Shown here: positions 30,307-30,738 of the stretch, piece by piece
How the letters are laid out: each line of letters starts with the position of its first letter
How positions within the stretch are numbered: position 1 is the stretch's first letter
Assembly: GCA_965242965.1 (NCBI GenBank)
Contig: OZ251518.1
Location: 3,520,001 to 3,584,000 of the forward strand
DNA from: Candidatus Poribacteria bacterium
GTDB lineage: Bacteria; Poribacteria; WGA-4E; WGA-3G
Direction: 5' to 3'
Length of the DNA stretch: 64,000 nucleotides
The notes under the pieces: model-generated
Told to the model about the DNA's origin: nothing
Databases searched by the model: none
What the model saw: the letters and a program-made list of their open reading frames with translations, nothing else
Translations under genes and position numbers: made by a program

Positions 30307-30738
30307 AGTATACCACAAAAAAACGCATTTGTCAAATTTATTTTTCAAAAAAACGGATTTGCTGACACAAACCCTCGCGATGGTATATAGTATACCACGA
30401 AAACTGCGCAATGTCAAATTAAAATCAAATTAAAATGACAATTTCGTCATCGTTGAGGTTAATTATACCACAAAAAAGATGCAATGTCAAATTAAAATGA
30501 CGATTTCTGCGAATTTCTGCTGAATTACGCCACAAAAAGTGCGCGATGTCAAATTAAAACGACAATTTCGTCATCGTTGAGGTTAATTATACCACAAAAA
30601 TGACGCAATGTCAAATTAAAATGACATTTTCTGCGGAATTCTTGTTAATTCTGCCCCAAAAAGTGCGCGATGTCAAATTAAAACGACAATTTCGTCATCG
30701 TTGAGGTTAATTATACCACAAAAATGACGCAATGTCAA
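30307..30738 (-). promoter_or_regulatory. Array of seven tandem sigma70-type promoters facing tRNA-Ala-23S-5S
   Basis: TTGACA-17bp-(-10) units. Plus-strand TGTCAA starts at 30330, 30412, 30485, 30547, 30609, 30671, 30733; the matching -10 boxes are TATACT, TATACT, TATAAT, CGTAAT, TATAAT, CAGAAT, TATAAT. Confidence 0.88.

Follow-up and report, generated by a model that had tools for sequence, protein, structure and literature searches.

A tandem array of seven predicted housekeeping promoters before a detached tRNA-Ala-23S-5S unit in a poribacterial genome

Ribosomal RNA (rRNA) units with several promoters are known already. Two promoters are described for Escherichia coli rrn (PMC5179076), and for rrnA the paper on Mycobacterium kumamotonense gives two tandem promoters in M. 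tuberculosis and five in M. chelonae (PMC10218544), so that the rule of one or two promoters per bacterial rrn operon, from which the first-pass annotation of the DNA analysed here had started, is too narrow. Unlinked rRNA genes are described as widespread and as tied to slow growth and symbiosis (10.1101/705046; PMC7761764). One of these papers stresses the single-promoter argument for rRNA balance (10.1101/705046), and the other names the relative promoter strength before each unlinked rRNA as an open point (PMC7761764). Here we describe an array of seven promoter units before a tRNA-Ala-23S-5S unit that is detached from the 16S rRNA gene, in a stretch of 64,000 nucleotides (nt) from Candidatus Poribacteria bacterium (assembly GCA_965242965.1, contig OZ251518.1, positions 3,520,001 to 3,584,000), referred to as the window. 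The window sits in a 5.70-Mb genome (G000) of 2 contigs and 54% G+C. Judging from the sequence and its relatives, this is probably a genuine housekeeping promoter array that drives the detached unit from several promoters. What is notable about it is the repeat structure, the unit number, the contrast to the 16S rRNA gene and the comparative series in related genomes, and literature searches in a limited collection returned no report of such promoter arrays in Poribacteria and none before an unlinked 23S rRNA gene among the best 12 of 89 papers.

The array extends on the minus strand from 30738 to 30307 (approximately 430 bp). TTGACA boxes have their first bases at window positions 30738, 30676, 30614, 30552, 30490, 30417 and 30335, which corresponds to box-to-box distances of 62, 62, 62, 62, 73 and 82 nt toward tRNA-Ala, and a 17-nt spacer separates the box from a -10 hexamer in 7/7 units. 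Units 1, 3 and 5 carry TATAAT and units 6 and 7 TATACT, all with an extended -10 (TG), and the -10 boxes of units 2 (CAGAAT) and 4 (CGTAAT) are decayed. The exact pattern TTGACA-N14-TGNTATAMT is found in 5/7 units. With up to one mismatch allowed, the window holds eight occurrences of the extended pattern, where shuffles give an expectation of 0.04; none of 100 shuffles held eight or more. Our promoter scan picked up 6/7 units (three with 12/12 letters of the two boxes, two with 11/12 and one with 10/12). It demands an A at position 2 of the -10 box and thus missed unit 4, which was read directly from the letters. The units are, in the direction of transcription:

30710..30738, minus strand: promoter unit 1, A-type, TATAAT with extended -10; 12/12 with TG, exact extended pattern
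30648..30676, minus strand: promoter unit 2, B-type, CAGAAT, no TG; 10/12, with an intact B unit in the related genome G002
30586..30614, minus strand: promoter unit 3, A-type; 12/12 with TG, identical to unit 1 in 62/62 positions
30524..30552, minus strand: promoter unit 4, B-type, CGTAAT; below the scan rule, identical to unit 2 in 52/62 positions
30462..30490, minus strand: promoter unit 5, A-type; 12/12 with TG, identical to unit 1 in 59/62 positions
30389..30417, minus strand: promoter 6, TATACT with TG; 11/12, short inverted repeat over the -10/+1 region
30307..30335, minus strand: promoter 7, proximal; 11/12 with TG, corresponding to a site at -42 to -50 in 14/20 loci of the family

Tandem Repeats Finder described the stretch 30425-30741 with a period of 62 (5.1 copies, 71% matches) and with a period of 124 (2.6 copies, 93% matches), and a separate repeat search gave the identical register. 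Intact units are separated by 124, 124, 73 and 82 bp. Every checkable detail of the first-pass annotation on boxes, spacers and distances was matched, as was its alternation of strong and degraded units in a 124-bp higher-order repeat, with units 2 and 4 being the weak ones, and the 62/124-bp repeat agrees with its view that tandem amplification made the array. The proposed helical phasing, in which all boxes would face one side of the DNA, was not supported: at 10.5 bp per turn 62 bp are 5.9 turns and 124 bp are 11.8 turns, a drift of about 70 degrees per 124 bp, and site spacings in the window's own family, described below, range from 43 to 136 bp and keep no common phase. No gene lies between the array promoters, and the sole open reading frame (ORF) of at least 60 amino acids (aa) that starts inside the array is a same-strand frame of 82 aa within the region of a neighbouring WD40-repeat gene. 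We rejected a CRISPR array, iterons or another repeat system, as the units abut without unique spacers and the number of inverted-repeat pairs in 30200-30800 is zero. We also rejected the idea that each unit encodes a small RNA with a terminator of its own; the unit transcripts folded no better than shuffles (z 0.08), and one stretch reached z -2.5, yet without a U-run.

An assembly artefact, i.e. a collapsed or expanded repeat, is barely credible as the origin of the array. The genome was assembled in only 2 contigs, and contigs from four short-read runs of four independent studies match both edges of the array: from the 23S side they reach 30466 (X1, X2, X4) or 30425 (X10), and from the WD40 side 30698-30712 (X1, X2, X4). 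Interior contigs further match the variant B-type units, in X1 at 30515-30590 with 0 differences and in X2 at 30628-30692 with 1 difference, and another species of the genus carries a six-unit array of the same repeat. What could be held in favour of an artefact is that the contigs of all four runs break into pieces of 44-110 nt inside the array, giving no unit count and no usable depth, and therefore cannot confirm the unit number. One X10 contig joins 30598 to 30720 and skips 121 nt. We rejected it as a shorter allele, since its shorter side has 27 letters with 9 differences, and it may represent a related strain or a repeat collapse. Among 21 runs listed, no RNA run carried the DNA, and the runs with matching DNA were labelled as sponge metagenomes.

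The genomic distribution of the motif indicates that it is the organism's housekeeping promoter (sigma-70/sigma-A type), and we call the boxes promoters because of their position before tRNA units. The exact extended pattern was found 113 times genome-wide, compared to about 0.3 occurrences expected by chance in 5.7 Mb by our own arithmetic. Among 27 units encoding tRNA or transfer-messenger RNA, 19 have a site within 400 nt upstream and 5 have more than one, and in 16 of those 19 the start of the nearest -35 box is 39-82 nt away from the first tRNA.

Specialised rather than additive promoters, with the A type, promoter 6 and promoter 7 serving different growth states or regulators, would be another way of reading the array, comparable to the way in which tandem rrn promoters of other bacteria divide their work by growth phase. 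Its three different -10/+1 wordings, two of which reappear at corresponding places in other genera, would fit this, and mycobacterial tandem rrn promoters are reported to be used unequally and depending on conditions (PMC10218544). We nevertheless regard specialisation as rather improbable: a single sigma-factor consensus (sigma-70/sigma-A type) fits all array units, the three A units are near-identical, which speaks for multiplicity and not diversity, and we identified no regulator site. A short inverted repeat (30380-30400, minus strand) includes the -10 box of promoter 6; its wording recurs after promoters in two related genomes, G009 and G007, and it could be a candidate operator.

The genome holds one rRNA gene set and 48 tRNA genes. 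Along the minus strand the order is 16S, tRNA-Ile, three ORFs (approximately 4 kb), array, tRNA-Ala, 23S and 5S, the ORFs encoding proteins of 146 aa (no Pfam family), 277 aa (Laminin_G_3) and 723 aa (WD40). The split of the rRNA genes seen by the first-pass annotation was borne out, as 4.9 kb with three ORFs part the 16S end (35006) from the 23S start (30123), and the two genes are thus unlinked in the sense of the surveys cited above. The features around the array are:

36706..36734, minus strand: single 16S promoter, 12/12 without TG, from the promoter scan, with a conserved A/T-rich upstream stretch
35006..36556, minus strand: 16S rRNA (Rfam SSU_rRNA_bacteria, 1537.8 bits)
34826..34899, minus strand: tRNA-Ile(GAU), which stayed with the 16S rRNA gene (ARAGORN)
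30741..32912, minus strand: WD40-repeat gene of 723 aa, ending at the array (ORF list; Pfam WD40, E 1.1e-67)
30347..30374, minus strand: 8-bp hairpin with a tail of seven T, located between promoters 6 and 7, terminator-like in the scan listing
30214..30289, minus strand: tRNA-Ala(UGC), the genome's only gene for this tRNA (ARAGORN; Rfam, 70.5 bits)
30165..30176, minus strand: word in the tRNA-Ala-23S spacer that recurs, with 2 letters changed, in the 16S leader at 36663-36674
27127..30123, minus strand: 23S rRNA, full length (Rfam LSU_rRNA_bacteria, 2708 bits)
26922..27038, minus strand: 5S rRNA (Rfam 5S_rRNA, 109.9 bits)

The spacer word at 30165..30176 is a candidate boxA-like antitermination word. 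Upstream of the 16S promoter region lies a direct repeat of two copies (37067-37280 and 37354-37568; about 288 nt from start to start, 94-97% alike), each with short inverted words and a weak promoter-like site. Promoter-like sites also occur in pairs elsewhere in the window, at 5312-5490 (minus strand, 150 nt apart, upstream of a 465-aa ORF at 3747-5144) and at 58329-58463 (plus strand, 106 nt apart).

For 40 relatives the tRNA-Ala/23S junction was retrieved, and the stretch ahead of tRNA-Ala was scanned for sites with at least 5/6 letters in the -35 box, at least 10/12 letters in total and a spacer of 16-18 nt. A comparison of unit number across relatives had been proposed by the first-pass annotation, and several sites turned up throughout the window's own family (f1), with 2-6 sites within 450 nt before tRNA-Ala in 20/20 loci; locus L036, which ends before the tRNA, was left out. 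A proximal site at -42 to -50 from tRNA-Ala is present in 14/20 of these loci. Three sister families showed 0 sites before tRNA-Ala in 9/9 loci, and there tRNA-Ile lies 10 nt before tRNA-Ala, right behind the 16S rRNA gene, as in an ordinary linked operon.

On the 16S side, one promoter with 12/12 letters lies 147-249 nt before the mature 5' end in 23/23 loci of 21 f1 genomes and is the sole site within 700 nt in 20/23, so that the single 16S promoter of the first-pass annotation was confirmed both in the window (36734-36706, 12/12) and family-wide. The 120 nt upstream of this promoter contain 67-82% A+T, forming an A/T-rich stretch with recognisably kept wording. In five complete genomes of the sister families with a linked operon, we found one promoter for the whole operon in 4/5 and two in 1/5. 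The contrast of one promoter for 16S and several for the 23S unit is thus a family-wide rule, and a derived one in comparison to the sister families, whose linked operons show no site ahead of tRNA-Ala. In G005, one complete genome of the family, the 5' part of the 16S rRNA gene was matched at eight places (L058, L068-L074), three over the full stretch and five as fragments, which suggests extra 16S copies or pieces.

The family also bears on the order of events. The first-pass annotation had placed the origin of the array after the operon split, and this was not supported, given the presence of several promoters throughout the family and in G009, in which 16S, tRNA-Ile and tRNA-Ala are still adjacent and three promoters lie in a 136-bp repeat between the two tRNAs. 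Internal promoters can therefore be present in an operon that has not come apart. What is peculiar to the window's genus is the 62-bp amplification alone. Each copy of the 136-bp repeat in G009 also contains a tRNA-like element (L018, 2158-2230 and 2294-2366) with an Rfam tRNA score of 48.5 bits, neither of which was called by ARAGORN, and genus g5 has a related, conserved pair of hairpins between its promoters. In G005, a congener of G009, tRNA-Ile remained attached to the 23S unit under a promoter of its own, so that the breakpoint differs from that of the window. Elsewhere in f1 the distance between 16S and the 23S unit varies between about 3 kb and over 3 Mb, on either strand. At least two different operon breaks thus occurred in f1. 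A tree of 23S sequences (1777 columns) recovered f1 as one clade (100/100) and placed the genus of G009 within the same unresolved group as the window's genus (90/94, drawn open). Whether the ancestral operon was linked and already held internal promoters is neither shown nor excluded by this tree. The multi-promoter layout would have arisen in the family ancestor as internal promoters between the spacer tRNAs, and in the window's genus a 62-bp promoter unit would then have been amplified as an alternating A/B (124-bp) repeat, which would keep turning over by unequal exchange or gene conversion.

Selection on more than one promoter can be seen in two other genera. In genus g2 (8 species) two positionally orthologous promoters have 21/24 invariant box columns compared to 63/267 for the other columns, and in genus g5 (6 species) three such promoters have 26/36 compared to 99/308, which argues that several promoters are each under purifying selection. 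Within the window's genus the picture is one of turnover. The closest relative, G002, the other species of this genus for which the locus is assembled, carries six units belonging to the 62-bp family and keeps the A/B alternation, with one of its B units intact and one broken. A units are identical among themselves in 59-62 of 62 positions in G000 and in 59-61 of 62 in G002, compared to 51-54 of 62 between the two species. This higher identity within than between species implies that the A units were homogenised in each species, or re-amplified there. B units drift and lose their -10 boxes; the two B units of G000 (B1 and B2) share 52 of 62 positions with each other and 54-56 of 62 with the intact B unit of G002.

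Between promoters 6 and 7 lies the 8-bp hairpin with its run of seven T (30374-30347). It leads to a rival explanation in which only promoter 7 drives tRNA-Ala-23S-5S, while units 1-6 are a neutral, slippage-prone repeat whose transcripts end at the hairpin and T-run. The decay of B units in both species of the genus and the difference between the two species in unit number and sequence, as expected of an unstable repeat, would be in line with this explanation, and of all sites in the family the proximal one (-42 to -50) is kept most widely. The hairpin itself is weak, with G-C in 3/8 stem pairs and a folding energy no better than that of shuffles (-9.3 kcal/mol, z -1.1, equalled by 28 of 200 shuffles), and it is absent from the G002 array, where no hairpin stands between the units and the proximal promoter. 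Also, at least two sites were retained in 20/20 family loci, and across the 8 species of g2 and the 6 of g5 the upstream boxes are far better conserved than the flanking letters. We therefore consider sole use of promoter 7 unlikely, albeit the most serious of the competing explanations.

Homologous pieces of the hairpin were found in three relatives. The piece follows tRNA-Ile directly in G009, where it precedes the first internal promoter; it lies between tRNA-Ile and tRNA-Ala in G005, and between the two promoters in genus g2, where the T-run is swapped for a word that the 16S leader and the tRNA-Ala-23S spacer also contain. By these positions the piece appears to be a relic of the old 16S-23S spacer, always just upstream of a promoter. 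Its role could be that of a terminator, an insulator, an antitermination aid or an A/T-rich upstream element of promoter 7.

Upstream of the array, the WD40 stop codon is followed after 2 nt by the array start, with no terminator between them. This arrangement would suit upstream units that act mainly as DNA elements, either by recruiting polymerase and forming a road-block shield from WD40 read-through or by activating the proximal promoter through supercoiling. In E. coli kps, an upstream tandem promoter is described to activate the downstream one by transcription-coupled supercoiling (PMC5738388). Such a role is very improbable here, as the sequence calls for nothing beyond ordinary promoters and the same layout is present in relatives with other upstream genes.

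We return to the array as a set of promoters that jointly serve the detached unit. RNA polymerase holoenzyme would load at several units, and transcripts from upstream units would read through the downstream ones into tRNA and 23S, promoter 7 having its -10 box end 18 nt before tRNA-Ala. The total flux on the sole 23S gene would be a less-than-additive sum of several promoters, and a single conserved promoter, preceded by a long A/T-rich stretch that is a candidate UP-like element, would supply the 16S flux. In the units on the 23S side just about 10 A/T-rich bases lie upstream of the -35 box. We infer that more than one unit fires, that the outputs add and that the arrangement serves to bring 23S output into line with that of 16S. 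In one reading, promoters 124 bp apart could be used side by side and those in between would add little, which fits the larger footprint of a polymerase of about 75 bp. A kinetic model for native E. coli tandem promoters, as presented in PMC8830795, gives an output between that of one and two single promoters if start sites are more than 35 bp apart, and by this 35-bp criterion all seven units would be free of mutual occlusion. For tandem core-tac promoters a stepwise gain in transcription up to five copies is reported (PMC3293061).

Several points weigh against such joint use. In the same model tandem promoters interfere and never exceed the sum (PMC8830795), and the synthetic core-tac series stops rising at five (PMC3293061). 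The conservation of boxes holds for the two- and three-promoter layouts of relatives and not for the seven-unit array itself. Both B units of G000 have lost their -10 boxes, in addition to the broken one in G002, and units 1 and 3 (A1 and A2) are identical even outside the boxes, which recent gene conversion explains as well as selection. Single-copy rRNA genes suggest a slow grower, in which a need for high flux would not be obvious. The main uncertainty for an additive model is the hairpin with its T-run, which could stop transcripts of units 1-6 before the tRNA.

Stacked promoters are not confined to this locus or to rrn. Genome-wide we found 22 same-strand clusters of at least three promoter-like sites, one of which (G000:C1:3326016-3326501; locus L009, about 316-801) also has seven sites in an alternating repeat. 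It consists of two alternating unit types with a period of about 156 nt and lies approximately 900 nt upstream of a gene for a 554-aa secreted-type protein with cohesin, dockerin and Ig-like domains. Fifteen of the 22 clusters belong to an element of approximately 700 nt present in 18 copies (e.g. G000:C1:1430177-1430880, L012; C1:31628-32018, L013). This element has 3 or 4 tandem consensus-like promoters at intervals of about 73 and 103 nt. Behind them comes a conserved stretch of about 400 nt, opening with a G+C-rich hairpin, and the element is found upstream of varied genes, several with signal-peptide-like starts. It is flanked by a short G+C-rich palindromic repeat (G000:C1:1430051-1430250; L012, 51-250) with about 1000 BLAST matches in the genome. 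Rfam searches gave no credible match for two copies of the element or for eight loci downstream of other promoter clusters. Promoter stacking is thus a habit of this genome, of which the 23S array is the extreme case among the stable-RNA genes.

A more far-reaching interpretation, which we put forward tentatively and hold to be possible at best, is that internal promoters enabled the break-up of the operon and that promoter copy number sets 23S output as an evolvable gain control, the counterpart of eukaryotic spacer promoters, with stacking as a lineage-wide expression setting. The array would then expand, contract and be homogenised by unequal exchange, as a natural version of engineered tandem-promoter clusters. 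The array touches on the open question of how 16S and 23S are balanced without co-transcription, and the contrast of one and many promoters may show how cells rebalance both RNAs once the operon breaks. The family offers a natural series from linked operons with one promoter, over a linked one with internal promoters, to split ones with 2-7 promoters on the 23S side and one on the 16S side. As the array is short (430 bp) and matches the E. coli consensus, it can be easily tested. If the units add up, it would provide a natural model for the limits of tandem promoters on polymerase flux and for the evolution of regulatory-DNA copy number in bacteria.

In comparison to known systems, the locus resembles E. 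coli P1/P2 and mycobacterial rrnA in that several co-oriented sigma-70-type promoters stand ahead of an rRNA unit. Unlike in E. coli and mycobacterial rrn, these are seven near-identical copies in a 62/124-bp tandem repeat, and they serve only a detached 23S unit while the 16S rRNA gene keeps one promoter. A G+C-rich discriminator is the stringent-control signature of E. coli P1, whereas all array units are A/T-rich after their -10 boxes. As in other unlinked rRNA genes, protein genes part 16S from 23S and separate promoters are needed. The surveys of such genes leave promoters undescribed, whereas here a whole family with one versus many promoters is seen, together with a linked genome with internal promoters. 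Repeated promoter-like units upstream of the rRNA gene promoter are found in eukaryotic rDNA (Xenopus type), a parallel drawn by the first-pass annotation, but those spacer promoters belong to RNA polymerase I, are of another promoter type with enhancer function and share no homology with the array, so that the likeness is one of analogy only. Synthetic core-tac clusters share with the array the head-to-tail copies of one strong core promoter before a single-copy gene; they are engineered and saturate at five, whereas the poribacterial array is natural and alternates intact with decayed units.

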